DNA of 64,000 nt from Treponema sp. Its GTDB lineage: Bacteria > Spirochaetota > Spirochaetia > Treponematales > Breznakiellaceae. Both the position numbers and the translations under genes were made by a program. The DNA is taken from positions 4,270 to 68,269 of the forward strand of contig WQZG01000009.1 of the NCBI GenBank assembly GCA_009780855.1, in the 5' to 3' direction. Shown piece by piece: positions 5,249 through 29,874 of the stretch. The stretch's first letter is position 1; each line of letters begins with the position of its first letter. The notes below the pieces were generated by a model. That model had not been told where the DNA came from and made no database searches. It saw only the letters and a program-made list of their open reading frames with translations.

Positions 5249-5265
5249 ATTAACTCCTGTATAAC

Positions 5266-7966: not shown

Positions 7967-8026
7967 AAGAAGCCACCTCTCTAACCACAGGTTAGTTTAC
8001 TAAAGGTTAGTTTACCAAAGGTAAAT

Positions 8027-8986: not shown

Positions 8987-9063
8987 AAGTTCTCTCCAAG
9001 ATTACAATCATTATAGATTAATATTATTGTACTGTCAAATAAAACTTTTATCAAATAATAATA

Positions 9064-10080: not shown

Positions 10081-10086
10081 GTTTTT

Positions 10087-10896: not shown

Positions 10897-10897
10897 G

Positions 10898-11332
10898 TTA
10901 TTTTTTAACCTCTCTCTGGCTTTTCCTTTGCGGAGATTCCGGGGACAACTGCATCATTTCAATCCTGTTGCCGTCCGGATCGGCGATAAAACATTGATGG
11001 TTAAGGTCGCGGCCAACCCGCGGTCCGCCTACGATTTCAATTCCTTTTTCTTTAAAGTAAGCCAGTGTTTCTTCCATGTTATCCACTTCGAAGCACATAT
11101 GGCCCGCGGTAATTGCCTTGGCATCGGGTTTTTCCTGCTGGGCCGGACCCATTTGTATAAGTTCGACAAAGTTGCCGTCGGGCAGCATCAGGTAGGTAAC
11201 CATCAGCTTACCTTCTTCATTGTGGATCTGGAACGCTAATTTTAACCCCAGCTTATCGCAGTAAAATTCAATAGACTTATCAAGGTTTTTGACTGCCAGA
11301 TTAATATGGCCGAATCTTTTTACTATACCCAT
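10898..11332 (-). CDS. VOC (glyoxalase/bleomycin-resistance/dioxygenase) family protein
   Basis: 'FGHINLAVKNLDKSIEFY', 'GHMCFEVDN', 'DPDGNRIEMMQ'. Confidence 0.8.
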   Translation of the reverse strand: MGIVKRFGHINLAVKNLDKSIEFYCDKLGLKLAFQIHNEEGKLMVTYLMLPDGNFVELIQMGPAQQEKPDAKAITAGHMCFEVDNMEETLAYFKEKGIEIVGGPRVGRDLNHQCFIADPDGNRIEMMQLSPESPQRKSQREVKK

Positions 11333-11343
11333 ACTTTATGCTC

Positions 11344-12939: not shown

Positions 12940-12953
12940 AATTCATTTCTCCT

Positions 12954-14561: not shown

Positions 14562-14643
14562 AATTTATGTCTCCTTAAAAAAAATTAACGGCTTTATAAA
14601 AAACCGCGATAAACACCCCAAATGTTTTATAAATAAAAATTTT

Positions 14644-15531
14644 TTATTCCTTTAACGAACCAAGCATTACGCCCCTTATAAAAAACTTCTGGCAGAAGGG
14701 ATAAGCGCACAGTATCGGTATGGTAGCGACAATAATCGTACAGTACTTAACAATAATTTCGATAAGCGGCACTATACCTTCCGCACTGGCGTCTGCCATA
14801 ACGTTTCCGCTTGACGAGTTAGCCAAAAGTATTTCCCGCAGTATTACCTGGAGCGGCAGCAGACTTCTGCTTCTGATATATATAATGGCCGGCAGCCAGG
14901 AATTCCAGTTTTCAACAACATAGAACAGCGCGATAACCGCGGTAGTTGCCTTGATCACAGGCAGTATAACCTTGAACAAAATTACAAAGTCATTCGCTCC
15001 GTCGATTTTGGCCGATTCCTCAAGGCTGGGCGGCACCGAATTAAACGCAGTCCTCATAACTATCATGTTCCATGTTGTGATCGCTTCCGGCAGAATCAAA
15101 GCCAGCCGGGTATCATAGATCCCGATGGCGCGGACCAAAAGAAGACTCGGAATAAGCCCTCCCCCAAAATACATGGTAATAATAATCATTATCATAAAAA
15201 ATTTTTTGATATACAGGTTCTTTCTAGACAGGGTATACGCTCCAAGCATTGTCAAAAGCATACTCAATGCCGTTCCAACTAAAACGTAAAATAAAGTATT
15301 CATATAACCGGTAAAAATATTGGGATTCTTGAGAACTACCCTGTACCCGGCCAGGGTAAATCCCAGAGGTTTAAGCAATATACCTGTGAACTTCGTTAAT
15401 TGCTGCGGTTCGCTGAATGACGCAAAAACAACATATAACAGGGGATACACACAAACTACGGCAAATAAAACCATAAAAATATAATTTGCCGAATCAAATA
15501 TATAATCCCCGATATTCCGTTTAGTAACCAT
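14644..15531 (-). CDS. Carbohydrate ABC transporter permease (MalG/LplC-like)
   Basis: EAA loop 'ESAKIDGANDFVILFKVILP' and multi-TM profile. Confidence 0.9.
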   Translation of the reverse strand: MVTKRNIGDYIFDSANYIFMVLFAVVCVYPLLYVVFASFSEPQQLTKFTGILLKPLGFTLAGYRVVLKNPNIFTGYMNTLFYVLVGTALSMLLTMLGAYTLSRKNLYIKKFFMIMIIITMYFGGGLIPSLLLVRAIGIYDTRLALILPEAITTWNMIVMRTAFNSVPPSLEESAKIDGANDFVILFKVILPVIKATTAVIALFYVVENWNSWLPAIIYIRSRSLLPLQVILREILLANSSSGNVMADASAEGIVPLIEIIVKYCTIIVATIPILCAYPFCQKFFIRGVMLGSLKE

Positions 15532-15557
15532 TCACCCGATCTCCCCTGCCTGTTCCG

Positions 15558-16478
15558 TTACCATAAACTTTCATTGGTAATTTTTTTACTTAGCTTGTTC
15601 GCAATTATCAATGTCGCGATATTGATAACCGAGTTAAAAAGCCCGACAGCGGCGCCCAGGCCGTAATTCTGTTCAACCAGTCCGCGTCTGTACACAAAAG
15701 AAGATACGACATCGGCTGTTTCATACGTCAATGGATTATACAGCAGAATAATTTTCCCGAATCCCAGAGACATAATACGGCCCATGCGCATTATCAGAAG
15801 GGTGGTAATTGTCGGTATAAGCGACGGCAGTGTAATATGCAGCGCCTGCCTGAACCTTCCCGCGCCGTCAATTACGGCTGCTTCATAGAGGTTCATGTCG
15901 ACTCCGGACAATGTAGCAAGGTAAATTATGCTTCCCCACCCAATGCCCTGCCAGATATCACTGGCCACAAAAATCGTCCGGAACAGTTCGCTGCGGGTTA
16001 AGAGGCTGGTGGCTTTACCTCCAAACATAACAATAATCTTGTTAAAAAGGCCGTTCATGGTTGAAAAATCGGTAATCATACCGCATATAACAACCAGCGA
16101 AATAAAATGCGGCATATAACTTATAGTCTGAACCACTTTTTTGAAACGTATGGCCCTCATTTCGTTAAGCAGCAGGGCAAGGATTATGGGCGCGGGAAAC
16201 GCGAAAATTATCTGGTAAATATTGATGACAAACGTATTGCGGATGGTCCGCCAGGCATAAGGTCCGGTCAAAAAATCAATAAAATTTCCAAGACCGATCC
16301 AGGCGCTCCCCAATATACCCTTGAACGGCCTGTAATCCTGAAAAGCGACTACAATACCGCCCATTGGTATATAGTGGAAAACGACGTAAAACAGGAGAAC
16401 CGGGAAAAACATTATATAGACAAATTTATTGATCGATATGTCTTTGGATAATTTAACAATAATACCAGGCTTCTTCAT
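15558..16478 (-). CDS. Carbohydrate ABC transporter permease (MalF/LplB-like)
   Basis: EAA loop 'EAAVIDGAGRFRQALHITLP' and multi-TM profile. Confidence 0.9.
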   Translation of the reverse strand: MKKPGIIVKLSKDISINKFVYIMFFPVLLFYVVFHYIPMGGIVVAFQDYRPFKGILGSAWIGLGNFIDFLTGPYAWRTIRNTFVINIYQIIFAFPAPIILALLLNEMRAIRFKKVVQTISYMPHFISLVVICGMITDFSTMNGLFNKIIVMFGGKATSLLTRSELFRTIFVASDIWQGIGWGSIIYLATLSGVDMNLYEAAVIDGAGRFRQALHITLPSLIPTITTLLIMRMGRIMSLGFGKIILLYNPLTYETADVVSSFVYRRGLVEQNYGLGAAVGLFNSVINIATLIIANKLSKKITNESLW

Positions 16479-16602: not shown

Positions 16603-17067
16603 ATGGAAAATCCGGTAGATTTTAACGGTTTTATTCAAATTGCAATCATTGTTAAAGATATTGAAGCGGCAGCAAAGGCCTGGAGCAAATTTTTCAATGT
16701 CCCGATGCCGGAGATCAAAGGAAGCAAAGAAAAAACCGAACGCCCCGGTGTCACATACCGCGGCAAGGATGCTAATTACGGCCTAAGGATTTGTTCCATT
16801 GCGGCAAAAGATCGGGGATTTATCATCGAACTGCACGAATGCAACGGCGGCGACAGCACATTCCAGGAACATCTTGATAAACACGGATACAGTGTTCACC
16901 ATCTTGGTTTTAACATGGGCGAAAAAACAGACGCTGTAATCGCCGAAATGGAAAAAGAAGGAATAAAGATCCGCCAGCACGGCCCGGGCTGGACTGTTAT
17001 GGATACCGAAGAAGTGCTTGGCGTCAACCTGAACATCAAGCCAAAGGGCCCGGTCTTCCGCCATTAA
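16603..17067 (+). CDS. VOC family protein
   Basis: 'IQIAIIVKDIEAAAKAW', 'HHLGFNM'. I prefer the ATG at 16603 (AAGGAG 6 nt upstream) over the TTG at 16570 in the ORF track. Confidence 0.7.
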   Translation: MENPVDFNGFIQIAIIVKDIEAAAKAWSKFFNVPMPEIKGSKEKTERPGVTYRGKDANYGLRICSIAAKDRGFIIELHECNGGDSTFQEHLDKHGYSVHHLGFNMGEKTDAVIAEMEKEGIKIRQHGPGWTVMDTEEVLGVNLNIKPKGPVFRH

Positions 17068-18301
17068 AAAGAAAATGCCGTATGGCGCAGGCCGCGCCGC
17101 CGGCTGAGCAGCGGTCTATATCATAGTCCTTGAATTCAAACTCGGTTTCGGAATCGGTGAGCGCGAAAATATGCTCCCTGACTGTCTCCCGCAGCCTGGT
17201 CTTTAGATCGGGGCGGGAGAAAACCTGGCCGTCAACAAGAACAAGTTTGGGATTAATAAGGTTTATTACATTGGCAATACTGCAGCCGAGGTAATAAATC
17301 CCTTCATTTATAATTTCTGCGGTTTTTTTATCGCCCTTGTCCCAGGCGGACAATATTTCGCCGATTGACGGGTTATTGGGATTTTTGATTTCCTTTTTTA
17401 GCACTGAGGAAGTATTTCCTGCAGAAGTTTTTCCCGCCATATACTCCGCCACCTGTTTTTTAATGCCGTATTCGCTTGCTACTGTTTCAAGACAGCCGAG
17501 TTTGCCGCAGCGGCATTCAGTCCCGTCCCTGACAACAATCGAATGGCCAAGCTGACCGGCCCCGGAAATATTGCCCTGCAGAAGTTCGTTATTGTTCACA
17601 ATGGCGCAGGCTATGCCTTCGCCCACAAATACATATAAAAAATTTCCGGTAATTCCGCAGGTCTTGTTTTTCCATCCTGAAAAAAGCATTTCCCCTATTG
17701 CCATTATGCGGACGTTATTCTCGACACAAACCGGCAGCCCGATGCGGTCTTCCAGCTCCTTTCCGACATTAATATTTTTCCATCCCTGAACAGGCGAATA
17801 ACGTACTATACCGGTTTCTATTTCTACAAAACCGGGAACCCCCACTCCGACTCCCAGGATTTTATCTTTTTGTAAACGGTTCGCTTTTATCAAACGCTTA
17901 ATCATCTCCGATGTTTCGTTAATGACAGAATCCACTTCCCATTTTTTAACCGGGCTCCTGGCCTTATCCAGGACATTACCCCGCAGATCTGTAACTGAAC
18001 AAATTATTCCGTTGGGTCCCCAATCCGCTCCTATGGCATAAGCGGCGTCATTTACTATATCCAGCAGAATCGGTTTTCTTCCCAGGGCTGCGTCGCTGCC
18101 CTGGCCGGATGTCTTCCCGCATTCTGCCACAAGTTTGGCATCTATAAGGCCGGCAATATTGGATGTAATCGTAGGCGGCGCAAGAGAAGTAATATTGGCA
18201 ATTTCTATCCTGGAAATGGGGGCGTGGAAAAAAAGAGTCTGCAGGATTTTGGACTTGTTATTCTGATGTACCAAAACCATATTGGAACCTTTAAAGTTCA
18301 C
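17036..18301 (-). CDS. ROK family transcriptional regulator (NagC/XylR-like)
   Basis: N-terminal wHTH 'ISRIEIANITSLAPPTITSNIAGL'. ROK sugar-kinase fold with 'GHSIV...CRCGKLGCLE' zinc motif. GTG start with GGAGG RBS. Confidence 0.85.
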   Translation of the reverse strand: MNFKGSNMVLVHQNNKSKILQTLFFHAPISRIEIANITSLAPPTITSNIAGLIDAKLVAECGKTSGQGSDAALGRKPILLDIVNDAAYAIGADWGPNGIICSVTDLRGNVLDKARSPVKKWEVDSVINETSEMIKRLIKANRLQKDKILGVGVGVPGFVEIETGIVRYSPVQGWKNINVGKELEDRIGLPVCVENNVRIMAIGEMLFSGWKNKTCGITGNFLYVFVGEGIACAIVNNNELLQGNISGAGQLGHSIVVRDGTECRCGKLGCLETVASEYGIKKQVAEYMAGKTSAGNTSSVLKKEIKNPNNPSIGEILSAWDKGDKKTAEIINEGIYYLGCSIANVINLINPKLVLVDGQVFSRPDLKTRLRETVREHIFALTDSETEFEFKDYDIDRCSAGGAACAIRHFLFNGGRPGPLA

Positions 18302-18435: not shown

Positions 18436-19935
18436 TTACACGCTCCATTTTTCCATTAGAGGATATTTTACGTCGGTATCCTTATATTCTTCCTTGCATC
18501 TTTTAAGCATGATTTTTAATTCATTAACAGTATTTTTATATGAATTATCTTCATACAGGTTCTTTAATTCATACGGGTCATTTTGCATATCGTAAAGTTC
18601 CCAGCCTGCAGGCGTTGGTTCATTAACCGCGCCGGCCGCGTCCAGGGGAAGCCCGTAGTAATAAATCAGTTTCCAGCGTTCGGTCAGAATGCCGTAGTGG
18701 GCCGGGTTATCGTGCCTGTGCGCCCGGTGCATCCAGTAACGGAAGTAAACCGATTCCCTGACGCGCGCCCCGGCAGCGCAGGCGATCATGTTCCGGCAGG
18801 AAAATCCCTGCATTTGCGGCGGAATTTTTATGCCCGCGTAATCAAGCAGGGTGGGCGCGATGTCTATGTTTGCCATAAGTGAATCAAGTACGGAGCCGGC
18901 CATGATTTCTCCGGGATAACTGATCAAAAACGGAGCGCTGAGGCTTTCTTCGTAACTCCAGCGCTTGTCCTGGTAATCGTGTTCTCCAAGGAACATCCCC
19001 TGGTCTGATGTGTAAACAATAACAGTATTGTCCAGGAGGTCCTGGTTCTTTAGTTCATCCAGAACCGATCCAACCGAATCGTCAATTCCCTTTACAGTGC
19101 GCAGATAATCCTTGAGGTACTTTTGATAGGCGGCAAGGCCTTTTTCCTCAAAGGTCATATTCTCGGTATTTTTTAACGGTCCGGTTACATAATCATCCGC
19201 AAGAAAATCCCGGTACAGGCTGCGTACTTTACTGCGCGGAGTAACGGAACTCCCGTAATCCCTTGAGGCAATGCTGCGGTGGCTTTTATCCTCGAACAGG
19301 CTACCTGTAACAGGTATGTCAACGCCGTCAAACAGATGCTCATGCCGTGGGGCATACTCCCAAAAATCATGGGGCGCCTTGTGGTGGCACATCATAAAAA
19401 ACGGCCTGCTTTTATCGCGTACGGCCAGCCAGTCAAGGCATTTTTTTGTAATAATATCGGTTACATAACCGGGATATACTTTTTCGCCCCTGCCCTTGTC
19501 AAAGAAAAGCGGATCGCGGTAAGTGCCCTGTCCGTCCGCGCCGGTTAAAACCGAATAATCGTCAAACCCCTGCGGCTCGCAGTGCAGGTGCCATTTCCCG
19601 AACACCGAAGTTGTATAACCGCCATCACGAAGCAGGGCCGCCAGGCTGAGCCTGGCCGATTGAGCTGCCGTCTGCGAATCCAAAGATGACGGTATCCAGC
19701 GATCGCTGAGCGTACGCACTCCATTAACATGGCCGTACTGGCCTGTCATTATGGTCGCCCTTGCTGGTGTGCAGATTGAATTGGTGCTGTAGAAACGGTT
19801 CAGCCTGGCGCCGGCATCCGCGATCCTGTCAAGATTGGGAGTCTTAAAAACTTCGGCCAATATGGATTGGTAACAGCTCACCGCGTTGGCCGAATGATCG
19901 TCGGACATAATAAACAGAATATTCGGCTTGTTCAA
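18436..19935 (-). CDS. Cys-type sulfatase without a signal peptide
   Basis: 'PNILFIMSDDH' and sulfatase signature 'CTPARATIMTGQ' (C-x-P-x-R), 'GKWH', 'SDQG'. An in-frame TAA sits two codons upstream of the TTG start, so there is no room for a leader peptide. Confidence 0.85.
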   Translation of the reverse strand: MNKPNILFIMSDDHSANAVSCYQSILAEVFKTPNLDRIADAGARLNRFYSTNSICTPARATIMTGQYGHVNGVRTLSDRWIPSSLDSQTAAQSARLSLAALLRDGGYTTSVFGKWHLHCEPQGFDDYSVLTGADGQGTYRDPLFFDKGRGEKVYPGYVTDIITKKCLDWLAVRDKSRPFFMMCHHKAPHDFWEYAPRHEHLFDGVDIPVTGSLFEDKSHRSIASRDYGSSVTPRSKVRSLYRDFLADDYVTGPLKNTENMTFEEKGLAAYQKYLKDYLRTVKGIDDSVGSVLDELKNQDLLDNTVIVYTSDQGMFLGEHDYQDKRWSYEESLSAPFLISYPGEIMAGSVLDSLMANIDIAPTLLDYAGIKIPPQMQGFSCRNMIACAAGARVRESVYFRYWMHRAHRHDNPAHYGILTERWKLIYYYGLPLDAAGAVNEPTPAGWELYDMQNDPYELKNLYEDNSYKNTVNELKIMLKRCKEEYKDTDVKYPLMEKWSV

Positions 19936-19996
19936 TTTTTATTAATCATGAAACAGTCAGCCAGGAAACTGCCATTCAGGATTCCCCGTTAATATT

Positions 19997-20860
19997 TTAA
20001 CCATTCAGATATATATCTGCAATTTCCAAAAACTCTTCCGGGTAAAAACCGATTTCGCCGCTGAACCTTGTGAGCGCGATAAGGCCGCCGTCAATCTCCG
20101 GAATCGAAGCCAGCATTTTGGCGTTGTCCGTTTTTAAACCGCCGCCGTAAACAACCGGAATATCGGCTTTGCTTTTTATAAAACGCGCGATTTTTTCGAT
20201 GTAGGCGCGATCGGGCGGAGTTTTGCCGGGGCCGATTGCCCAGACAGGTTCGTACCCAATGACGAATTGGCGATCCGGAGCCGCGGAAAGCCCGGCTTCG
20301 ATTTGGGCCTCAAGCACCTCCTGCCAGTGATCCTGTTCCTCGGCTTTTTCGCCTATGCAGTAAAGCACTTCCAGGTTCCTCGCCCTGGCGGCGGCGACTT
20401 CTTTGCCAAGAATGCGGTTGACCGCGGCAGCGGCGGCGTCCGCGGAAACTCCGGCTTCCGCAAGAACCGCGGCCAGACTGCGGCGTTCTTCGCAGTGGCC
20501 GATAATCACCGATTTGCAGCCAAGAGCGGTCAATGCGGCCGCGGGCTTCGATGTTGTAAACGCGCCGAAGTTGCCGCCTTTGGCAAGATCGTCCCAATGA
20601 ACACCCTGGCAGCCGATCGTAACTGCGGACTTGCCGCCGGAGCCGGCTGTTACGGAAGCTGCAAAAGCAGCCGGAATTATATGAGCCTCGGGAAAGAAAA
20701 ATGTAAAGGAGGCGTCGCCTCTGTTATATTTTTCCAGCCCCGGATTTACACTGTTGATAATTGTTGCCGCCCATTTATCGGGAGCGGCGATCCGGTTTAC
20801 CCCGCCGAATTCAGCCGGAACATCAAACCGCTTGAGATTTACATAAATATATTTTTTCAT
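19997..20860 (-). CDS. Triose-phosphate isomerase family protein (long, divergent paralogue type)
   Basis: TIM catalytic pattern N-x-K ('VNLKRF'), His ('IGHCEERR' versus canonical GHSERR), Glu ('GYEPVWAIGPG') and 'YGGGL'. It is 287 aa, longer than canonical TpiA. Confidence 0.75.
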   Translation of the reverse strand: MKKYIYVNLKRFDVPAEFGGVNRIAAPDKWAATIINSVNPGLEKYNRGDASFTFFFPEAHIIPAAFAASVTAGSGGKSAVTIGCQGVHWDDLAKGGNFGAFTTSKPAAALTALGCKSVIIGHCEERRSLAAVLAEAGVSADAAAAAVNRILGKEVAAARARNLEVLYCIGEKAEEQDHWQEVLEAQIEAGLSAAPDRQFVIGYEPVWAIGPGKTPPDRAYIEKIARFIKSKADIPVVYGGGLKTDNAKMLASIPEIDGGLIALTRFSGEIGFYPEEFLEIADIYLNG

Positions 20861-20878
20861 TAATGGCCTCCCGATAAT

Positions 20879-22159
20879 TCACGTCGCGAATGTTAATTCG
20901 CGCGCCAGGTTGCGCTTGTACGATTCAACGCCGTTTTGATCGAACGGCTCGACTCCAAGAAACGCCGCGGAAAAATATGTTGAAAGCATCTGCATGTACA
21001 TAAATTCACCGATTGTTTCCTCGTCAACTTTATCCGCGGAAAACTTAAGTACGGGTACGCCGGCTCCGTAGTGAGCGTCCGATGTGGCTTTGGAAACAGC
21101 CGGGTTCAGACAGTCAAGGGATTTACCTTCAAGGTAAGAAAGTCCGTCGTCCCATGCGGAAGCAGGCAGATTAATTTTTTTGGGTTTAAAAAAGTCCAGG
21201 AAAGTTTCAAAGAAGAACCGGCCGCCTTCCTGATAATACTGGCCGATCGCGTGCAGGTCTTCGGAGAAGCAGGACATGGTCGGCAGTACAGCCTGGGTGT
21301 TCTTGCCTTCGGTTTCGCCGTGAAGCTGCAGCCACCAGCGGGCGAGCATCTGGAGAGAAGGCTCAAAATAGGAAAAGGCCTCTGCGGTAAAACCTTTTTG
21401 CCGCAGCAGATGGCGCGCGGCCGCATACCTGACTGACTCATGGCCGCCGGCGTCAGATTTGGCGCCGGACTTGAGCCGCAGCTCGGAATTCAGGCCGCCG
21501 CGCACGAATCCTTCTATGTCAGCGCCCATCACAGCCATGGGCAAAAGTCCGACCGCTGTAAAGGCCGAAAACCTTCCGCCGACCGCTGCCGGGAATTCGA
21601 AGAACGAGTAGCCGTTTGACTGCGCGATATCCGCGAGCTGGCCTTTGCCGTAACTGCCGGTAACCGTAATACGGCTGCTGTAAGAAGGGCCGTATTTTTT
21701 GTTCATCCAGGAACGGATCACGCGGAAAGCCAGAGCGGGTTCCAGGGTCGCGAAGTTCTTTGCTATGATGTTGGCGTAAACGCTTTTTCCTTCAAAGCTT
21801 TCCAGACAGTTGTTAATTTCGTTTGCTGAAAGGGTATTGCCCATGTAGAGGATCTTTGGCTTGCCTTTCCTATGGTATTCCATTCCTTCGATAACACTCT
21901 GGGCCGCCCTGTTCGATCCGCCGACGCCGGCAAGTATGAACACATCGGCGTCCCTTTTTATCTCCGCGGCTTTTACCCGGATTTTTTCCATAAGGGGAGC
22001 GCCGGTGTTCTCCGCAACTTTAAACCAGCCAAGAGCATCGGCCATTCCGTATTGGCCGGCAAGAACTTCAGTAATTATTTTTTTGTTGTCCGCGATAAAT
22101 TTATCAATCGCCCCGGAAGGCAAGGTTTTATCCAGTCCGGATTCGTCAAATTTTATCAT
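20879..22159 (-). CDS. pgi: Glucose-6-phosphate isomerase (short bacterial type)
   Basis: 'ILAGVGGSNRAAQ', 'GGRFSAFTAVGLLP', 'GETEGK'. This is the SIS-domain PGI pattern. Confidence 0.8.
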   Translation of the reverse strand: MIKFDESGLDKTLPSGAIDKFIADNKKIITEVLAGQYGMADALGWFKVAENTGAPLMEKIRVKAAEIKRDADVFILAGVGGSNRAAQSVIEGMEYHRKGKPKILYMGNTLSANEINNCLESFEGKSVYANIIAKNFATLEPALAFRVIRSWMNKKYGPSYSSRITVTGSYGKGQLADIAQSNGYSFFEFPAAVGGRFSAFTAVGLLPMAVMGADIEGFVRGGLNSELRLKSGAKSDAGGHESVRYAAARHLLRQKGFTAEAFSYFEPSLQMLARWWLQLHGETEGKNTQAVLPTMSCFSEDLHAIGQYYQEGGRFFFETFLDFFKPKKINLPASAWDDGLSYLEGKSLDCLNPAVSKATSDAHYGAGVPVLKFSADKVDEETIGEFMYMQMLSTYFSAAFLGVEPFDQNGVESYKRNLARELTFAT

Positions 22160-22184
22160 TTAAATTCCCCAATTTATATCCCAA

Positions 22185-23351
22185 TTAATTCCCAAGATAC
22201 GCGTACTCCGGCATGGGCAGGTCGACAAGGGGCCGGCAGTAGGCGGCGAAATCTTCGGTAAAACCAAGACCGGGTCCCTTAAGCCATTTGTCCGGGAACT
22301 TCTGTTCGACGTTGGCGACTTTCTCCAGCGGAACCAGGGTCATTTTCGAAATGTAACGCGGGCTCCGCTCGGCTGTTATCGCTACCATAAAACCGGTTTT
22401 GCCTTCGGCCGCGTTCTTTACCGCAAAGGCGCCGGCATCGTAGGCTTCCTTCCTGTCAACTTCTGAAACACAGGCCATGCTTACACGGCCAAGGAGACCG
22501 GGTTTTTCCGAACGGGACTTGATATTGAGTTCGCCGATAATAAGGTCTGTTACGGCCTGCGCCGCCCCTCCCGCGATAATGTGTCCGAATCCGTCCTTAA
22601 TGCCGGTATCGCCGTAAGGCGTTCCCTTTTCATCCTTGATACCTTCGCTAACCGCGACAAGAACGCCGCGTTTCTTTTTCCAGGCCGCCTCGATTTGCCC
22701 AAGAAGGGTTTTGCGATCATGCAGATGCTCAGGCAGGCAGACCATAAACTCGCAGGGCATGGCTTTTTGGAAAAGGCCGCAGGCTGCGGTAATCCATCCG
22801 GCGTTGCGGCCCATGGCCTCCATTGTCACCACGTGAATCGGCAGCGAGGCAGCGTCCATGGCGAGCTCAAGCGCGCTGATAGCGGCGTACCGCGCGGCGC
22901 TCCCGTAGCCGGGAGAGTGATCGGTTTCGGCAAGATCGTTGTCGATGGTTTTGGGAATACCTATCACGTTCAGCTCAAAACCGGATTTTTGCGCAAGCAG
23001 GCTGATCTGGTTGCAGGTGTCCATTGAGTCGTTCCCGCCGTTATAAAAAAACCAGCGGATATCGTTCTTCCTAAAACACTCAAGCACTTTTGGATAATCA
23101 TCGGCAGCCAGTTTCCTCCGGCAGCTTCCCAGGGCCGACGCCGGAGTCTGCCCCAGCTTCGCGATAACGCCGGCCGGGGTCCCGGTCAGATCCATCAAAT
23201 CGTTATTCAGAATACCTTCGGCCCCGAAGCGCGCGCCAAAGATTTTTTTAATTGCGCCGTGTTTTCTTGCTTCCTCAACCGCGCCCTGCAGCGAACTGTT
23301 TATGACCGGAGTCGGCCCGCCGCCGTGGGCGACAAACATGTTTGCGCTCAT
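22185..23351 (-). CDS. Phosphofructokinase family enzyme, PPi-dependent-type signature
   Basis: 'GGGPTPVIN', 'NGGNDSMDT', 'IPKTIDNDL', 'MGRNAG'. Asp and Lys occupy the positions equivalent to E. coli PfkA Gly104 and Gly124, the known PPi-type discriminators. Confidence 0.8.
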   Translation of the reverse strand: MSANMFVAHGGGPTPVINSSLQGAVEEARKHGAIKKIFGARFGAEGILNNDLMDLTGTPAGVIAKLGQTPASALGSCRRKLAADDYPKVLECFRKNDIRWFFYNGGNDSMDTCNQISLLAQKSGFELNVIGIPKTIDNDLAETDHSPGYGSAARYAAISALELAMDAASLPIHVVTMEAMGRNAGWITAACGLFQKAMPCEFMVCLPEHLHDRKTLLGQIEAAWKKKRGVLVAVSEGIKDEKGTPYGDTGIKDGFGHIIAGGAAQAVTDLIIGELNIKSRSEKPGLLGRVSMACVSEVDRKEAYDAGAFAVKNAAEGKTGFMVAITAERSPRYISKMTLVPLEKVANVEQKFPDKWLKGPGLGFTEDFAAYCRPLVDLPMPEYAYLGN

Positions 23352-23360
23352 GATTTTTCC

Positions 23361-24515
23361 TTACTGGTTTTTATAGAACTCCCGCATCTGCGCGAGTGTT
23401 TTTATTTCAACATCATCGGCATGGCCGAAAGAACCAAACTGAATGATCAAGGTCCCGACGACTTCCCGCACGCCTTTTTTTACCAGATCCACAAGATCCA
23501 GAATATCGCCGTCTTTGATATCAAACTCAACGATCATCTGGTTCATTACAGGAGGAAGGAAAACCCTGGGGTCGAACTTGTCGGGATTTTTATCCATCAG
23601 TTCCCAGACCGGGCCTACCGACGGACTCTTCTTTTTTTCAGGATACTTGGTAAAGTACTCCCTGAAGTTGCGCGTAACGGCAAGCCTTATGTCTGTATCA
23701 ACGTTGATCTTGCGGATACCGTGCGGAATTACGGCGGTGAGCTCATCGATGGGAATTCCGCTCGCGTCCTTTATGGCGCCGCCCAGGGCGTTGATTCGGT
23801 TGACGACATAGCGGGGGACCGAAGATGATCCGTGCGATACCAGAAGGGCAGTAATGCCGCGGTAACGCAGGTTCTCCGTCGTCGCAATCGCGATCTCCTT
23901 GCGGAGTTTTACATCCGGACCTTTTACCGCGCCGTGCTGGGTTCCGTAGGAAATTGCCAGACAGTCGACTCCGGTCTTTTCCATAAACTCGCAGGCTACG
24001 GTCGGATCGGTGTAGTTGGATTTTTCGGCGGAAACATGATCTTCCACACCGGCAAGCACGCCGAGTTCTCCTTCGACAGTGACGCCCAGCGGATGCGCGT
24101 ACTTTACAACTTCGCGGGTCAGCTCGACATTGTCATGGAATGGCATCGAAGAACCGTCGATCATGACGGAGGTATAGCCGCCGTCAATCGCGGCCTTTAC
24201 GGAATCAACGTCCTTGCCGTGATCAAGGTGAAGGGCCACCGGGATTTCGGCGTCTTTGGCGTAACGGTAGACAGCGTCAGCAATACGTTTTGCGCCCAAA
24301 CGTTTGTCCTCGACAGTACCTTTGGCAAAATCACCCCTGCCGCCCATAAAGGCGTTGGCAAGGTCAGCGCCCTGGATAATGGCGGCGCTGCGGAACATCT
24401 CGTGCACCTCGATAATGGCTTTTGCCTGGGCGACGGTGTTTACGTTAAAAGCTCCCTGGGCATACCCGCCCCGGGCAGCGGCATCCAGAATCGGACGCAT
24501 AGGCATAATCGGCAT
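23361..24515 (-). CDS. Class II ketose-bisphosphate aldolase (FBA/tagatose-bisphosphate aldolase family) with C-terminal extension
   Basis: 'GYAQGAFNVN', 'VALHLDHG', 'SVMIDGS', 'VEGELG', 'AISYGTQHG'. GGAGGA RBS. Confidence 0.8.
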   Translation of the reverse strand: MPIMPMRPILDAAARGGYAQGAFNVNTVAQAKAIIEVHEMFRSAAIIQGADLANAFMGGRGDFAKGTVEDKRLGAKRIADAVYRYAKDAEIPVALHLDHGKDVDSVKAAIDGGYTSVMIDGSSMPFHDNVELTREVVKYAHPLGVTVEGELGVLAGVEDHVSAEKSNYTDPTVACEFMEKTGVDCLAISYGTQHGAVKGPDVKLRKEIAIATTENLRYRGITALLVSHGSSSVPRYVVNRINALGGAIKDASGIPIDELTAVIPHGIRKINVDTDIRLAVTRNFREYFTKYPEKKKSPSVGPVWELMDKNPDKFDPRVFLPPVMNQMIVEFDIKDGDILDLVDLVKKGVREVVGTLIIQFGSFGHADDVEIKTLAQMREFYKNQ

Positions 24516-24708
24516 AACTTTCCTCCAATAATTTATTTTAGTTTTTTCTCACAGAGCCACAAAGTACACAAAGAACACGAAGGAAGATAAAAAACAAGAA
24601 ATAAAAGATAAAGAATACTTCTTTATTCACTTCTATCTCTTTCCTGCTCTGTGTCCTCTGTGTTCTCACGAACCGCAGGTTCGATGCCTCCGTGAGAATA
24701 AATTACAA
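24516..24708. repeat. Structured intergenic element with inverted CACAGAG/CTCTGTG-type arms and nested hairpins
   Basis: The left arm 'TCTCACAGAGCCACAAAGTACACAAAGAACACGAAGG' is inverted relative to the right arm 'GCTCTGTGTCCTCTGTGTTCTCACG'. The right end has 'TCTCACG-N20-CGTGAGA' enclosing 'CGAACC-GCA-GGTTCG'. Confidence 0.5.
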
Positions 24709-26178
24709 CTAAAGTGCTTTGCTGATGGTTCCTCCGTAGGGGTCATTTTTTAAACACAGGTGAACTGCGCCGGTGGTAAATGTTTTGGGCAGAGCGAGAA
24801 TTGCCGGGTTTTGCGGCAGGTATTTTTTCTGCGCGTCGGCCAGAGCTTCGTCAAAAGTTGCCCGGGTCTTAAGCCCCATTCCGCGGGCAATGCCTGTGTC
24901 TCGGGCGCCGACGATATAGATTGCGGCGGTGTTGGATTCGGCAAGGTGGCCGCAGGACATCATCGAGAAACCGTGGAAGGGATGGAAGGCGCCGGCAAAA
25001 CGGTATTTGCGGATGTATTCGGCGTTGGTCGCGTAATACTCGCCGTAACGGTCGAGGTCCGGCAAGGTGTTCATGTAGTCGCGGCCAAAGGCGTCATAAA
25101 GTTCCCTGGTGTAGGGCCACAGTTCATCGTGGAAATAACCGCTGCAGACGGAAGAACAGATAATCACACAGCGGTCGCTCATCACCCTTTTGTGCCGGAT
25201 TACCTGCGCACTTAACGCCTGCATCAGCATTATGGGATTGGTGCCCATTCCGTCTCCGTAATGGAAGGACTGCGGCATGCCAAAAACCATTAGGTCGTAT
25301 TTCTTCTGCGCGAACGGAACGTAGGTGCGCTTGTCCGCGATTTTCCAGCTCTGCGGCTCTATCTGCGCGGCGTATCCGGAGTAGATCGCGATCTGGCGGG
25401 CTTTTGTGTCCAGCACCGCGTCGCAGCAGAAAAACTTTTTACCCATGCGTTTTTCCATGTGCATGCCGATTTCGTCAAACTTGGTCCGCATGGCATTGGA
25501 ACCGGATACAGGGACAAACTCCTGTTTGTGCATCACTTTTGGCGTGTGGTGGCTTGCGATGCTGCGCCAGTGGGTAATGCCGGTTGTGCAGTGTTTGTAG
25601 CCGCCCGAATAACCGCCGTAGGGGTTTCCCTGGACGTGCCCGATCAAAACGGCTACATCGGCTTCGTAAACATACTTGTTCATGATCACCGGATCGCCGG
25701 CTTCTGTAGTACCCAGATCGATTAAGTGATCCCAGTCTTCGCTGTCGTGGTTTATGATTTGTCCTGAATACCAAAACTCGTCAAACAGCGCCTGTCCCAG
25801 AATTCCCCGAATTTCTTTTTCGGTATTTTTAGAATGCAGTCCGTTGGAGCAGATTAAAAGAACGTCTTTCTTCTGAACGCCGGCAGCGTAAAGTTCTTCC
25901 AGTACCAGCGGTATGCTCATCTTGCGGTGCGATGACGCCTGTTCGCCGCCCTTTACGCGGTCCGGGAAAACGATGACGCATTTGCTGCCCTTGTGCGCGA
26001 GCTGCGAAAGCGGCGGCATTCCGATTGGATTATGCAGACTCTGCAGGTAAGCTTCCTTTAGTTTGTCTTCGGGAATAAAAGCGGGATCCGGGATAGTCTC
26101 TCCCGGAATAAAAACATCGGTATTGTCCGGCAGATTGGCTTTTAAAAAACCGTTGCCGTATTCCAAATCAAGCTGCAC
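24709..26178 (-). CDS. LarA-like (DUF2088) nickel-pincer-cofactor-dependent racemase/epimerase family protein
   Basis: N-terminal 'QLDLEYGNGFLKANLP' and 'GHVQGNPYGGYSGGYKHCTTGI', resembling the LarA H-x-GFSGG-x-K cofactor-lysine region. I place the start at GTG 26178 (AGGAGG 6 nt upstream) rather than TTG 26208. Confidence 0.7.
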   Translation of the reverse strand: MQLDLEYGNGFLKANLPDNTDVFIPGETIPDPAFIPEDKLKEAYLQSLHNPIGMPPLSQLAHKGSKCVIVFPDRVKGGEQASSHRKMSIPLVLEELYAAGVQKKDVLLICSNGLHSKNTEKEIRGILGQALFDEFWYSGQIINHDSEDWDHLIDLGTTEAGDPVIMNKYVYEADVAVLIGHVQGNPYGGYSGGYKHCTTGITHWRSIASHHTPKVMHKQEFVPVSGSNAMRTKFDEIGMHMEKRMGKKFFCCDAVLDTKARQIAIYSGYAAQIEPQSWKIADKRTYVPFAQKKYDLMVFGMPQSFHYGDGMGTNPIMLMQALSAQVIRHKRVMSDRCVIICSSVCSGYFHDELWPYTRELYDAFGRDYMNTLPDLDRYGEYYATNAEYIRKYRFAGAFHPFHGFSMMSCGHLAESNTAAIYIVGARDTGIARGMGLKTRATFDEALADAQKKYLPQNPAILALPKTFTTGAVHLCLKNDPYGGTISKAL

Positions 26179-27421
26179 CAAAAACCTCCTCTCCGATTTT
26201 GCGGACAATCTCCACCCAGCGGATCATATTCTGCGGTTTGGCCGCGATAGTTTCAACGTCCTTGAGTGTAATGTCAAAGGGACAATTAAATTCCTTTAAA
26301 ATCTGATAATCCCGTCTTATTATTTTACTGACCAAATCCTCGTCCAGGCCGCCTGCGATCATGTCGGTGGGTTTGGGCCGGTAGGACGCAACATAATCAG
26401 GACCGATAAGCTCTGCGCATTTGCGCACATCGGAGAACGGGGTGATAGCTATGCGCCTCATGTTCTTTATTTTTTTAAGGAGCGGTATTTTGGTGTTCAT
26501 GTCTTCGCAGCAGCCGTAGGCGGATAGACCAAACCGTTCCATTATGGGCTTTTGGTACTGGAGCATAAATTCATCGTAGAGCTCCGGGCCGATTCCGGTA
26601 AATTCCTGGGAAGCCATAAAGACCCACAAATCTGACGGGCCCCGGACTTTATTTTGGGGAACCGGATCCGGGAGTCCTCCGCCGTATGCCATAGCCTGGT
26701 TGTCGCTGTTGAACGCGCGGAAGCTGCCGGCTTTTTCTGTTTTATCAATATCTTCCAGTACAGTGTCCCGCATGATCGTAACAAAACGGTGAAACCATTC
26801 CGGCCGGTCGTACACGTCCCACATTATCTGTTCCAGGCCGCGCAGTTTGGCTATGTCGGTGGAAATGTCCCTGTGCCACTGCTCGCAAAAAACGCCAACC
26901 CGGCTGCAGACCACATCAAGGACGCCGTCCATGTCCGGGCCCAGGGCGTCCTTTACTTTTTCTATCCGTTCCGCCGTTGCTTTTTCGTCAATTTCAAATT
27001 TGGCAGGTTTTATCCTGGCCAGATCTTCTTCATTTTTAATGGGAGGATCAAAGGCGGCCGCGCCGAACTGCGCAGTTTTTTCGCCAAGGGCGCAGGGAAC
27101 GCCCCAGCGGTCTTTTTCGTCAATATTTAAAACTGCCCTTACCGATATCCACGGCTCAAAAATATAATCATCTATGAGTTTCTGCCTGTAAATAACGGAT
27201 TCCGCGAACATTCTTTCAATACCGCGCAGCAGGCGGTCTTCACTTTTGACCGCCGAATAATCAAAGAATTCCCAATACGGAATTTTGCGCACATAAATGG
27301 CGGGCCGGCTGAACTTAAGGCTGTTGAGGTCTCTCCAGAGCCGCCTTTTTTGTTCCTGCGCAGGACTGTGTGCAAGTTCGGCGTATTGTTTGGCGAATTC
27401 ACGGAAAGATTCGTGCTTCAT
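26168..27421 (-). CDS. Hypothetical protein; the C-terminal half is vaguely URO-D/MtaA-like TIM barrel
   Basis: Long clean ORF overlapping the LarA-like start by 11 nt. No diagnostic motif recognised. The ATG at 27421 ('MKHESF') is preferred over the upstream GTG at 27487, but neither has a good RBS. Confidence 0.5.
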   Translation of the reverse strand: MKHESFREFAKQYAELAHSPAQEQKRRLWRDLNSLKFSRPAIYVRKIPYWEFFDYSAVKSEDRLLRGIERMFAESVIYRQKLIDDYIFEPWISVRAVLNIDEKDRWGVPCALGEKTAQFGAAAFDPPIKNEEDLARIKPAKFEIDEKATAERIEKVKDALGPDMDGVLDVVCSRVGVFCEQWHRDISTDIAKLRGLEQIMWDVYDRPEWFHRFVTIMRDTVLEDIDKTEKAGSFRAFNSDNQAMAYGGGLPDPVPQNKVRGPSDLWVFMASQEFTGIGPELYDEFMLQYQKPIMERFGLSAYGCCEDMNTKIPLLKKIKNMRRIAITPFSDVRKCAELIGPDYVASYRPKPTDMIAGGLDEDLVSKIIRRDYQILKEFNCPFDITLKDVETIAAKPQNMIRWVEIVRKIGEEVFGAA

Positions 27422-27499: not shown

Positions 27500-27820
27500 T
27501 TATGTTATTTTTTTTATTGCCCTGTCAAATTCGATTGAAATCCTGTCAAGAAAATCAGCTTTTACAGGATTTATCAATTCCGCCTGTCCGGGTTTTGGCA
27601 ATGATTCTGGCGAATCATCATAGAACAACAGGTATGGTTCAATTCCCAAAGCATCTGCAATTTTTCCAATAAATAAAAATGACGGATTCCCGTTTGCACT
27701 TTCAAGCTGTCTGATATAGGTATAACTTGTTCCGCAGCGTTCCGCCAGGGCTTTCTGGGAAAGGCCTTTTGCCTTGCGCCATTTTTTTAAATTGTAGATA
27801 AAAAGCCGGGTTATATCCAT
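27500..27820 (-). CDS. XRE family helix-turn-helix transcriptional regulator
   Basis: 'LKKWRKAKGLSQKALAERCGTSYTYIRQLESANGNPSFLFIGKIADALGIEPYLLF'. Confidence 0.85.
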   Translation of the reverse strand: MDITRLFIYNLKKWRKAKGLSQKALAERCGTSYTYIRQLESANGNPSFLFIGKIADALGIEPYLLFYDDSPESLPKPGQAELINPVKADFLDRISIEFDRAIKKIT

Positions 27821-27892: not shown

Positions 27893-27960
27893 CGTTAAAA
27901 GCTAACTTTATTTTAAATCCTGCAAGAATTTTTCAAAAAATAACATAAAGGAAATTGAGA

Positions 27961-29874
27961 ATGAAAAAATTAGCGTTTCTTATAATCCCGTTAACAGCGT
28001 TATTTTTCTTCGGATGTCCCAATCCCAATAGTTCTACCGATCAAACCAGTCTTAAACTGGGCGAAACATCTTTGGTGTTTACCGAAATAGGCGGCTCAAA
28101 ACTGGTAGCCGTTTCCGGTGATTCAAACTGGACAGCCTCCTCAAATCAGGCCTGGTGCACTGTATCGCCTGACCATGGATCCGGCAGCGGCGCAATAAAC
28201 ATTACAGCAGATATAAACAACACTATTGTACAGCGAACCGCAAAAGTTACCATTAAAACAACAGATAACAAGTTAAGCAGTGAGATCATCATTACCCAAG
28301 CGGCCGGCCAGCCTGCAGGACCGGTCAGCGACGGTCACGGGAACAGCATCGACGCCAATCCAGCGCTGCTGGATTTTTTGAATATCGGGGGGAGTAAAAC
28401 CATACAGGTTAGTTCAACAGTTGACTGGCAAATCGTATCCGATCAGGGCTGGTGCAGTGTTTCAGCCTCCTCCGGAAACGGTAATGTCCAAGTGACAGTA
28501 ACTGTCAGCGCCAATACAGGAACATCGAGCCGAATAGCAAGGCTGAGCATAATCAATAGCACTTATGTTCTGACAAAGACTGTAACAGTAACACAACTTG
28601 GAATAGAGCCTTCGATTGTCATTTTGCCGCCAACTACAAGAAACATTGACGACCAAACACAAACCATTTCTGTCAATGTGTCGGCAAACGTGGACTTTGA
28701 CGTGACGCCAAATGTAAACTGGATCACTGTAACACAGGTAACAGCCGCAGCCGTAACCCTGCAGGCGCAGGCGAATCCGTCAACCATAAGCCGCACAGGA
28801 ACAGTAACGCTCAAACAGAAAAGCGGCTCCGCCATGGCAGTACTGACGGTAGTCCAAGAAGGCAAGCCGCCGGCTGTATATTATGCATCATCTACAGGCA
28901 ATGACTTAAACGATGGAAAATCGTGGAACAATGCTGTTAAAGATATTAATTTAGCTATTTACTTTGCCGCTCCAGGCGATTATGTATGGGTGGAAGAAGG
29001 TGCTTATTCGGAAAATGTAACGATGAAAGATGGTGTGAATGTGTATGGAGGATTCAACCGCTCAGACATCAATATTTCCAATCGGGGTACCAGGCGAAGC
29101 GTGCTTACAGGAGGCGTTTTTACAAGCGCCAATAACTTCAGCATCCCAACTATTTTAGACGGGTTCACCATTTTTAATGATAACCTCAATACACGGCAAA
29201 CGCTTAATAAAAACAGTATCATTAATAATTGCGAACTAGAAGCAACTATTGATGGCTTACCAATTAGTTGGTCATTACTAACAATTTCTGGCGGAATCAT
29301 TTCCGATTCATCAATAGTTATTAAGGGTAAATATTCTTTGGATGGTACTACCGCTATATATACTACATCTGGCGGCATGATACTCAACAGCAATATATCA
29401 AATTACGTGACGAATTATCCAGGCTATAACTACCCTGTATGCAGTGTTACTATATTTTTAAACGGCGGCCGGGTGGAGGGATGCATAATATCGGGATGTA
29501 CAAGCAATTCTATCGTAAAGTACAGCAGCGGCGGTAATAACATTGTTAATTGTACATTTAATAATCTTCAGGGCACATGGAGTACCGGGAGTAATATTTT
29601 TTTGAATGGCAGCGGCTCTCTGAATTTTGTCAATAACATCGTTTTGCCTCATGGACATATAAATACAGTGACCGGACTTTATGAAGCCAATAATATGCAA
29701 GGGCTGGCAAATGATAATGTATATCTCCTGAATGCTGACTGGTCGCCCATGCCGTTATCTGGGGCTGTAAATAAAGGCGACAATTCATTTGTTACCATTG
29801 ATAAAGATATACTTGGCAATCCCCGTATCCAGAACGGCAGGGTAGATATCGGTGCGATTGAGTCGTCATATTAA
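27961..29874 (+). CDS. Lipoprotein with three BACON domains and a C-terminal right-handed beta-helix-like domain
   Basis: Lipobox 'FFFGC'. Three ~80-aa repeats of the pattern 'GGSK..V.VS....W...S.Q.WC.VS...G.G......V..N.....R.A...I'. C-terminal 'GNPRIQNGRVDIGAIES', typical of beta-helix/choice-of-anchor-type domains. Confidence 0.75.
   Translation: MKKLAFLIIPLTALFFFGCPNPNSSTDQTSLKLGETSLVFTEIGGSKLVAVSGDSNWTASSNQAWCTVSPDHGSGSGAINITADINNTIVQRTAKVTIKTTDNKLSSEIIITQAAGQPAGPVSDGHGNSIDANPALLDFLNIGGSKTIQVSSTVDWQIVSDQGWCSVSASSGNGNVQVTVTVSANTGTSSRIARLSIINSTYVLTKTVTVTQLGIEPSIVILPPTTRNIDDQTQTISVNVSANVDFDVTPNVNWITVTQVTAAAVTLQAQANPSTISRTGTVTLKQKSGSAMAVLTVVQEGKPPAVYYASSTGNDLNDGKSWNNAVKDINLAIYFAAPGDYVWVEEGAYSENVTMKDGVNVYGGFNRSDINISNRGTRRSVLTGGVFTSANNFSIPTILDGFTIFNDNLNTRQTLNKNSIINNCELEATIDGLPISWSLLTISGGIISDSSIVIKGKYSLDGTTAIYTTSGGMILNSNISNYVTNYPGYNYPVCSVTIFLNGGRVEGCIISGCTSNSIVKYSSGGNNIVNCTFNNLQGTWSTGSNIFLNGSGSLNFVNNIVLPHGHINTVTGLYEANNMQGLANDNVYLLNADWSPMPLSGAVNKGDNSFVTIDKDILGNPRIQNGRVDIGAIESSY

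Follow-up and report, generated by a model that had tools for sequence, protein, structure and literature searches.

Why would a spirochaete genome place four enzymes of classical glycolytic families in one gene string with a sulfatase and a LarA-like nickel-pincer enzyme, and on what kind of sugar would such a set act? The string in question lies on the minus strand of a 64,000-nucleotide stretch (the window) of contig WQZG01000009.1 of the Treponema sp. assembly GCA_009780855.1. This assembly is a metagenome-assembled genome (MAG) of 3.97 Mb in 201 contigs, 96% complete and with 5.9% contamination, in which the contig is numbered C9. Our reading, to which we give a probability of about 0.45, is that the string could encode a sulfo-EMP2-like route (EMP, Embden-Meyerhof-Parnas) for 6-sulfated hexoses or hexosamines, in which the triosephosphate isomerase (TIM)-like enzyme and LarA would handle a sulfated triose. 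The substrate class was drawn from the gene context and from motif changes in the enzymes, which suggest that a sulfate ester (or sulfonate) occupies C6 of a hexose or hexosamine, the position that the phosphate has in glucose-6-phosphate, while the roles given to the TIM-like enzyme and LarA are speculative. The features of the string are as follows.

27500..27820, minus strand: small XRE-type regulator of the HTH_3 family (Pfam PF01381, 54.6 bits), with a 12 nt gap to the next open reading frame (ORF)
26168..27421, minus strand: 417-aa protein, called as an ORF, with a predicted fold like that of uroporphyrinogen decarboxylase (URO-D) and MtaA
24709..26208, minus strand: LarA homologue, member of the single-histidine (His to Asn) subfamily (Lar_N PF09861, 133.9 bits)
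24516..24708, minus strand: intergenic long hairpin of 193 nt between larA and fba (RNA folding)
23361..24515, minus strand: class II ketose-bisphosphate aldolase (PF01116, 248.5 bits)
22185..23351, minus strand: 6-phosphofructokinase (PFK) family enzyme of the pyrophosphate (PPi) type (NF010675 PRK14072, 425.9 bits)
20879..22159, minus strand: aldose-ketose isomerase of the glucose-6-phosphate isomerase (PGI) family (NF010697, 354.2 bits)
19997..20860, minus strand: TIM-family isomerase of 287 aa (PF00121, 116.6 bits)
18436..19935, minus strand: leaderless formylglycine sulfatase (PF00884, 165.6 bits, and SGSH_C, 146.1 bits; CTPAR motif)
17036..18301, minus strand: ROK-family, NagC/Mlc-like regulator (PF00480, 153.2 bits)

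The co-directional string spans 17.0-27.8 kb. ORF calling returned, with short spacings, all eight minus-strand ORFs listed in an earlier note on this DNA, in the same order and at the same positions, and the downstream ROK regulator of that note was found 134 nt beyond the sulfatase gene. From the sulfatase to the aldolase, the intergenic spacings are 61, 18, 25 and 9 nt. The family assignment of every named domain gene is backed by both Pfam and NCBIfam, and the sequence contains all motifs quoted earlier: GGNDS, PKTIDND, and GHCEERR with an Ala-rich insertion behind it.

The plainest answer would be that these are the organism's core glycolysis genes in unusual surroundings, a null that the earlier note had itself raised. 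All four families are indeed classical, and the PFK scores above its NCBIfam subfamily cut-off. However, a profile search of the contigs found higher-scoring copies of pgi, pfk, fba and tpi elsewhere in the genome: TIM on C92 (318 bits, with a weaker match on C21), PGI on C7 (390.6 bits), fructose-bisphosphate aldolase (FBA) on C75, C141 and C15, and PFK on C53 (350.6 bits, the best), C1, C141 and C46. The C92 TIM carries all canonical TIM motifs and is translationally fused to phosphoglycerate kinase in a 701-aa frame (C92, about 3000-5060, plus strand), as in Thermotoga. The window copies share little with these paralogues, at 31% identity for TIM, 17% for PGI (C7), 34-40% for FBA and 21-40% for PFK, and the TIM-like, PGI-like and FBA proteins of the window all fall below the equivalog cut-offs. 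Among 40 relatives, 24 from the same family and 16 from the same order, one has the LarA of this string, in a copy 64% identical, and the cassette is missing from the other 39. In addition, the third-codon-position GC content (GC3) of the five cassette genes is 0.57-0.64 against a genome GC of 0.464, and the named matches to the cassette proteins come from Treponema and Spirochaetaceae MAGs. Because of the better-scoring paralogues, the GC3 shift and the occurrence in 1 of 40 relatives, the block is an accessory cassette, probably acquired horizontally. The core-glycolysis reading was ruled out by the paralogues on other contigs and the absence from 39 of 40 relatives, and we regard it as extremely improbable. 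The second set for which the earlier note had proposed a search does exist, and its idea of a dedicated shadow set beside the core enzymes was borne out.

The enzyme that sets this string apart from glycolysis is LarA. The window protein aligned over about 478 residues to PDB entries 9q2u (825.8 bits, E = 1e-247; residues 12-489) and 9q3j (823.7 bits, E = 4.4e-247; again about 478 residues), where 9q2u and 9q3k are LarA_Sp from Streptococcus plurextorum and 9q3j is LarA_Bw from Blautia wexlerae. D83, K86, H125, N195, K205, H221, H316, Y317, H412 and R442 of the window protein correspond to D73, K76, H115, N185, K195, H211, H306, Y307, H401 and R431 of LarA_Sp. All published active-site residues of the single-histidine LarA subfamily are therefore present in the window protein, including Asn (N195) at the position of the second catalytic His, the first His, the tethering Lys and the Ni-binding His, and R442 is equivalent to the dimer-interface Arg431. 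By these residues, the window LarA is placed in the single-histidine (His to Asn) subfamily; its closest NCBIfam model is the LarAH14/15/16 family, in which LarAH15 is a gluconate 2-epimerase (PMC11770544). Its most likely start is GTG 26178, which lies behind a putative GGAGAGGAGG Shine-Dalgarno sequence and would give a protein of 489 aa. This start cuts the overlap with the upstream ORF (stop at 26168-26170) to about 11 nt instead of 41 and agrees with the N-terminus of the solved relatives.

The LarA subfamily and its glycolytic neighbours are already on record. Replacement of the second catalytic His by Asn defines the subfamily, for which octameric structures have been solved, and lactate racemase activity was not found (Gatreddi et al., Protein Sci 2025, PMC12611868). 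LarA_Sp was purified with a covalently bound, unidentified 316.5-Da ligand that reaches the active-site entrance and was modelled tentatively as a phosphorylated linear sugar (PMC12611868). Neighbours annotated as PGI, PPi-PFK, TIM, FBA, fructose-1,6-bisphosphatase and NagB were described around the subfamily LarA genes, and the authors limited their conclusion to possible carbohydrate processing (PMC12611868). Like the LarA_Sp and LarA_Bw clusters, the window combines the Asn substitution with PGI, PPi-PFK, TIM and FBA neighbours; unlike them, it comes from a spirochaete MAG without detectable LarB, LarC or LarE, holds a leaderless sulfatase within the string and has a different gene order. 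A full-text search of the literature returned no paper that connects LarA with sulfo-sugars or sulfatases.

To see which genes travel with this LarA, one genome per species was scanned, and at least 503 genomes were found to hold a LarA relative. The best 80 (71-77% identical) come mostly from Lachnospiraceae and other Clostridia, with Treponema, Sphaerochaetaceae and Paenibacillaceae in addition. ORFs were called within 10 kb on either side, clustered by BLAST and annotated by cluster with NCBIfam; 83 loci were clustered in all, 79 of which hold LarA, and these loci are not phylogenetically independent. The TIM-like gene is beside LarA in 69 of the 79 loci, mostly directly upstream (PFK-TIM-LarA), followed in frequency by PFK (62 loci), an aldolase of 382-387 aa (53), NagA (39), a divergent NagB-like protein (34) and the PGI-like protein (17). 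Among all 83 loci, a LacI regulator recurs in 54, a mutarotase-like gene in 21 and LarC in 9, and a FucI-like cluster (c27, read by eye) was seen in 5 loci.

The second group of recurrent neighbours points to sulfur. Of the 79 loci, 44 have taurine/sulfonate-type ATP-binding cassette (ABC) components, 17 TauE-family permeases, 10 sulfatases and 6 the anaerobic sulfatase-maturating enzyme (anSME), the last recognised by eye from its radical S-adenosylmethionine (SAM)/SPASM sequence. Counted over all loci, there are 16 sulfatase copies, every one leaderless. At least one of a Tau-type ABC component, TauE or a sulfatase is present in 59 of the 79 loci. Genome-wide counts in 24 genomes gave expected values of 0.31 TauE genes and 1.13 sulfatase genes near LarA, against 5 observed for each, figures that are indicative since the loci are non-independent. 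The linkage of the shadow set to desulfation and to a nickel-pincer enzyme, which the earlier note had seen in one locus, thus recurs in the LarA loci of other genomes. In the genome under study, an anSME (radical SAM) gene, a TauE-family permease gene and two sulfatase genes are clustered at C5:14664-25299, an arrangement that links TauE with the handling of sulfate in this organism.

The commonest architecture reads LacI / PFK-TIM-LarA-NagB-NagA-FBA-tauCBA, plus a mutarotase. It encodes neither a hexose 6-kinase nor a phosphotransferase system (PTS), which fits a substrate that is imported already bearing its C6 anion. The NagA of these loci scores above the equivalog cut-off for N-acetylglucosamine (GlcNAc)-6-phosphate deacetylase (281 vs 225.65). 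Compared with the usual PFK-TIM-LarA order, the window runs LarA-FBA-PFK-PGI-TIM-sulfatase. In the PFK tree, the window enzyme falls outside the 59-member LarA-linked clade (clade support 96/88) and groups with the C141 PFK of its own genome (82/98), a placement made uncertain by long branches. Since its PFK lies outside the LarA-linked clade, the window string is a mosaic, the local form of an accessory cassette that is widespread and built around the single-histidine LarA and a dedicated TIM-like enzyme. The cassette PFK from a MAG labelled Bacteroides thetaiotaomicron (JAWZDV010000024.1) is sister to that of Hungatella hathewayi, and this contig is probably a mis-binned Clostridia contig. 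At C141:1469-4752, a class II aldolase gene adjoins the gene for the GGNDS-type PPi-PFK that is the closest paralogue of the window PFK (40% identity).

What substrate would these enzymes accept? Compared with canonical EMP enzymes (Pgi, PfkA/Pfp, FbaA and TpiA), the cassette uses the same four families with conserved catalytic residues, but its TIM-like, PGI-like and FBA proteins score below the equivalog cut-offs and carry altered phosphate motifs. The TIM-like protein misses every TpiA equivalog cut-off, with a best NCBIfam score of 81 vs 255, so that its divergence, suspected earlier from GHCEERR and the Ala-rich insertion, holds. The 71 members of its family conserve LNLK, GHCEERR and YEPVWAIGPGK and retain the catalytic Asn, Lys, His and Glu as well as the loop-6 lid; the GGAS of loop 8 is replaced by an invariant ALTRF, and 15-20 aa are inserted after GHCEERR. 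Homologues of the window copy at 60-78% identity were found in Treponema and gut metagenomes. The PGI-like protein scores under the cut-off of its model, the Bacillus-type glucose-6-phosphate isomerase PRK14097 (354.2 bits against 443), and matches PDB 1b0z with E = 9e-76. In this alignment, the canonical NVISKSGTTTEP of 1b0z and 3ifs is aligned to NIIAKNFATLEP in the window; the phosphate motif SKSGTTT has become AKNFATL, within an AKNF(E/A)TL pattern whose family consensus is AKNFETLEP. The family motifs with the catalytic Glu, His, Lys and Arg, GE(T/S)EGK, H, GGR(F/Y)S and FDQxGVExYK, are retained, and the window copy shows GETEGK, LHAIGQY, GGRFS and FDQNGVESYK.

The aldolase was assigned to the LarA-linked class II subfamily of 382-387 aa. 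It passes the TIGR00167 subfamily cut-off (225.2 vs 215.6) and no equivalog cut-off for FBA or tagatose-bisphosphate aldolase, and it keeps the metal motif ALHLDHG. The 56 co-clustered aldolases, which include outliers at 29-34%, have a median identity to the window copy of 63% and a maximum of 75%. In this family, QGA takes the place of Q-x-S, and the insertion that comes next contains a conserved Arg. The C-terminal extension of about 100 aa described earlier does not exist as such: the window enzyme, at 384 aa, is longer than that of Giardia (323 aa) through internal insertions, one behind beta-2 and two within the C-terminal third. The tagatose, allose, psicose and sedoheptulose pathways were also considered as a source of the substrate. 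They were rejected, as no neighbour supports them and the aldolase lies under every tagatose-bisphosphate aldolase cut-off, and with them went the tagatose/allose-type idea of the earlier note. In the NagB-like protein of other loci, PTGGTP is changed to PVGPVGQ, GNDGH to GINGH, and the Lys of VPKYALT to His or Tyr.

Four families of the cassette (PGI-like, NagB-like, TIM-like and aldolase) thus retain their catalytic residues while their phosphate-binding motifs are rebuilt. We take these motifs to be the grip on the distal phosphate of the sugar in the canonical enzymes. That the same element is altered in four enzyme families argues against a phosphate dianion as the distal group.

The PFK differs from these four. 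It looks like a regular PRK14072 PPi-PFK by its score of 425.9 against a cut-off of 273, and the picture of an odd or divergent enzyme was given up. As had been noted, GGNDS and PKTIDND give Asp/Lys at the positions that discriminate between ATP and PPi. The Asn at the position of Asp103 was dropped as a distinctive feature, since the C53 and C141 PFKs of the same genome also have Asn there. The segment RSEKPGxxGR is common to the window PFK and the LarA-linked PFK family; Arg162, Arg243 and Arg252 are retained in the window enzyme, and His249 is changed to Leu.

A distal group other than phosphate could also be a carboxylate or another non-sulfur group. In that case, an acidic sugar such as a hexuronate or aminouronate would be cleaved to dihydroxyacetone phosphate (DHAP) and tartronate semialdehyde, which the TIM-like enzyme and LarA would turn into products at the hydroxypyruvate/glycerate level, and the sulfur genes would be there by chance or for fragments of sulfated glycosaminoglycans. 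Characterised LarA homologues do use 2-hydroxy acids including sugar acids, and LarAH14/15/16 is the nearest NCBIfam model. Moreover, the pockets gain Arg (TIM-like, aldolase) and lose Ser/Thr (PGI-like), a change that fits a planar mono-anion as well as a sulfate. Nevertheless, uronate-pathway genes are not prominent among the recurrent neighbours, 6-O-sulfatase-type enzymes are unable to use a C6 carboxylate, and TauE, the SsuA-like binding proteins and anSME indicate sulfur. We therefore consider a carboxylate substrate improbable.

With a C6 sulfur oxyanion, the sulfo-EMP2-like reading would run as follows. The sulfated sugar or oligosaccharide would be imported through the adjacent ABC system, and the PGI-like enzyme would convert the 6-sulfo-aldose to a 6-sulfo-ketose. 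In most other genomes, NagA and the NagB-like deaminase would instead provide the entry, from GlcNAc-6-sulfate. The PPi-PFK would then phosphorylate C1, and the aldolase would cleave the product to DHAP and a 3-sulfated triose, which would be handled by the TIM-like enzyme and LarA. In this genome, sulfate would be released by the leaderless 6-O-sulfatase-type enzyme, either from the triose or as a second sulfate on the sugar. A source of such sugars is known in the gut, where free GlcNAc-6-sulfate is liberated from mucin by BbhII of Bifidobacterium bifidum (PMC11186840).

The closest known logic is that of sulfo-EMP2 in Bacillus urumqiensis, where the PF00365 kinase SqiK and the PF01116 aldolase SqiA act on 6-sulfofructose, in a set that also includes the SqvD isomerase (PMC9594981). 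Both systems place a PF00365 kinase and a PF01116 aldolase in one cluster, a match at the family level. The outcome proposed for the cassette is the same as well, since sulfo-EMP2 yields DHAP and a sulfo-triose from a hexose with a C6 sulfur oxyanion, and the wider LarA cassette repeatedly includes mutarotase-like and TauE-type genes. Unlike sulfo-EMP2, the LarA cassette would be entered by a PGI-like or NagA/NagB-like step and adds the TIM-like enzyme and LarA; and unlike the C-S sulfonate of sulfoquinovose, its sulfatases and anSME imply sulfate esters. The sulfoquinovosidase YihQ, the SqvD isomerase and sulfolactaldehyde reductase or dehydrogenase are absent from the window, and in the neighbour clusters that recur we noticed none of them, although no targeted search was made and the rare clusters are partly annotated. 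As for the analogy with sulfoglycolysis that the earlier note had drawn, the neighbours and the altered phosphate pockets now point to a sugar with a C6 sulfate or sulfonate, while the reaction itself is a proposal.

The fate of the sulfate depends on the sulfatase. The window enzyme has the C-T-P-A-R formylglycine motif and begins directly at the conserved N-terminal strand. It is leaderless, as the earlier note had stated, because no in-frame start lies upstream of its ORF, which cannot be extended in this direction and so includes no signal peptide. Its best PDB matches are the exo-L-galactose-6-sulfatase 7lha (2.9e-113), the GlcNAc-6-sulfatase 5g2v (2e-100) and the mucin-desulfating enzyme 7p24 (1.4e-80), which suggests that it is closest to the S1_11-type 6-O-sulfatases, a subfamily label deduced from these PDB entries and not from SulfAtlas. 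The anSME genes of the genome are on C5 and C50. Bifidobacterium breve reportedly uses GlcNAc-6-sulfate by an ats2-type system composed of a transporter for the sulfated monosaccharide, an intracellular formylglycine sulfatase and the anSME that matures it. This genome resembles that system in having a leaderless 6-O-sulfatase-type enzyme and anSME genes, whereas the ats2 system is not known to include a dedicated PGI/PFK/FBA/TIM set or LarA.

This resemblance bears on a further explanation, in which the cytoplasmic sulfatase would remove the sulfate first, a kinase encoded elsewhere would make the 6-phosphate, and the string would be an extra, co-regulated phospho-glycolytic branch with LarA epimerising or isomerising an unusual sugar phosphate (e.g. 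a C2 or C4 epimer). Several results are in line with it: the proximity of the sulfatase to monosaccharide 6-O-sulfatases together with the anSME genes, the PFK that passes the PPi-PFK cut-off and retains the Arg residues holding the 6-phosphate of fructose-6-phosphate, the NagA score given above, and the tentative model of the LarA_Sp ligand as a phosphorylated linear sugar. On the other hand, 69 of the 79 loci are without a sulfatase, and the commonest architecture has no 6-kinase or PTS. Desulfation first would also leave unexplained the loss of phosphate-binding residues in the PGI-like, NagB-like, TIM-like and aldolase families and the recruitment of taurine/sulfonate-family importers and TauE exporters. 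We judge this explanation unlikely, at something like one chance among several.

Several observations also weigh against the sulfo-EMP2-like reading in the window itself. Because the 3.97-Mb genome holds at least 60 sulfatase genes, the sulfatase adjacency in this genome alone is weak evidence; a sulfatase within 10 kb is expected by chance in about 1 of 3 cases, and we down-weighted this adjacency. The 6-O-sulfatase of the operon could desulfate the sugar first and so make a sulfo route needless, and the window PFK is both outside the LarA-linked clade and in possession of Arg162, Arg243 and Arg252. LarA may in addition be without its cofactor here. A tblastn search of the MAG with LarB, LarC and LarE from related loci gave no match, a PF01969 profile search of its contigs gave none either, and TIGR00268 gave sub-threshold matches only, although 96% completeness leaves the absence of LarB, LarC and LarE unproven. 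Among the carriers of this LarA, 12 of 14 Clostridia and 3 of 10 spirochaetes have LarC (missing in 2/14 vs 7/10). Finally, the 316.5-Da ligand of LarA_Sp hints at a substrate bigger than a triose.

How a sulfated triose could be processed where the loci hold no sulfatase is addressed by a sulfatase-free form of sulfate-ester glycolysis. Here, the 6-O-sulfate would replace the 6-phosphate, so that the sulfate of GlcNAc-6-sulfate or glucose-6-sulfate would stay on through isomerisation, 1-phosphorylation and aldol cleavage. Sulfate is a far better leaving group than phosphate. The TIM-like enzyme might enolise glyceraldehyde-3-sulfate and lose the sulfate to give methylglyoxal, in the manner of methylglyoxal synthase. 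The nickel pincer of LarA would then act as an internal hydride shuttle that takes methylglyoxal hydrate through enzyme-bound pyruvate to one lactate enantiomer, and the TauE-type permease would export the sulfate. If true, this scheme would account for the near-constant pairing of TIM with LarA, for the missing second catalytic His and for the sulfur-type neighbours. We regard it as a long shot.

Structures of the single-histidine LarA enzymes have been solved, yet this branch of the small group of nickel-pincer enzymes known so far is an orphan in function. With the window and its 79 relatives, the candidate substrates come down to hexoses and hexosamines with a C6 sulfur oxyanion, and a full set of candidate partner enzymes is at hand. 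If the sulfo-EMP2-like reading is right, the cassette would be a fifth family-level solution to sulfo-sugar glycolysis, would give gut Clostridia and spirochaetes, whether or not they have sulfatases, a route for the use of sulfated host sugars, mucin GlcNAc-6-sulfate for example, and would extend nickel-pincer chemistry past the racemisation of 2-hydroxy acids. Even if that reading is wrong, the cassette points to a widespread pathway, with at least 503 species that have it.

The remaining features of the string are less conserved. The 193-nt gap between larA and fba is structured, as the earlier note had held: its minimum free energy is -67.6 kcal/mol against -40.3 +/- 3.9 for shuffled sequences (z = -6.94), and 0 of 200 shuffles were as stable. 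A riboswitch or other known RNA was ruled out in this gap, as an Rfam search found no family and its sole match was a chance miRNA (E 0.12). The hairpin is not a genome-wide repeat, with one partial match (47 nt, 89%) on contig C36; it might act in the processing or stability of the mRNA or as an attenuator.

The 417-aa protein, which had been grouped with the shadow set, is an accessory neighbour outside the conserved cassette. It is a singleton among the 80 LarA loci, and its orthologues in other Treponema adjoin GFO/IDH/MocA and URO-D or GH92 genes, for which reasons it was discarded as a core member of the pathway. Sequence searches of Pfam, NCBIfam and the PDB returned nothing for it. Its AlphaFold2 model (mean predicted confidence, pLDDT, 92.4) was matched by Foldseek in the top 25 to uroporphyrinogen decarboxylases and a Methanosarcina mazei methyltransferase, with E down to 6e-7, so that a URO-D/MtaA-like TIM-barrel fold is confidently predicted. 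This placement came from the fold search alone, as hhalign against a neighbouring URO-D protein gave a probability of 1.3%. Its family has an invariant YGCCE motif and an invariant Cys335, which may form a Zn site. With seven paralogues in the genome (C174, C2, C36, C30, C56, C107 and C198), there are eight copies in total.

At its upstream end, the string may be headed by the HTH_3 gene, a regulator that is not conserved with the LarA cassette. A promoter-like site at 27870-27843 precedes this gene and is a match to the consensus only; the scan for promoters and terminators gave no more matches than chance. At the other end, residues 6-414 of the ROK protein align to the NagC model with 179 bits, under the equivalog cut-off, and the ROK gene is followed at 12954-16478 by CUT1-type sugar ABC genes for permeases and binding proteins. 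In the wider region at 4466-16478 (minus strand), there are two CUT1-type ABC systems whose large binding proteins are of the DUF3502 type, together with a GFO/IDH/MocA oxidoreductase, a 3-keto-disaccharide-hydrolase-like protein and a xylose-isomerase-like TIM barrel, a gene set typical of oxidative (3-keto) glycoside cleavage. On another contig, C15:1370-9390 encodes a NagB-like protein (44% identical to the NagB-like family of the cassette), a ROK protein and a class II aldolase, and five sulfatase matches lie further along, at 13-43 kb; this looks like a second locus for sulfated amino sugars. Divergent from the string, at 27955-29874 on the plus strand of the window, is a gene for a 639-aa protein with three BACON domains and a choice-of-anchor Q domain, which is probably a cell-surface glycan-binding protein.

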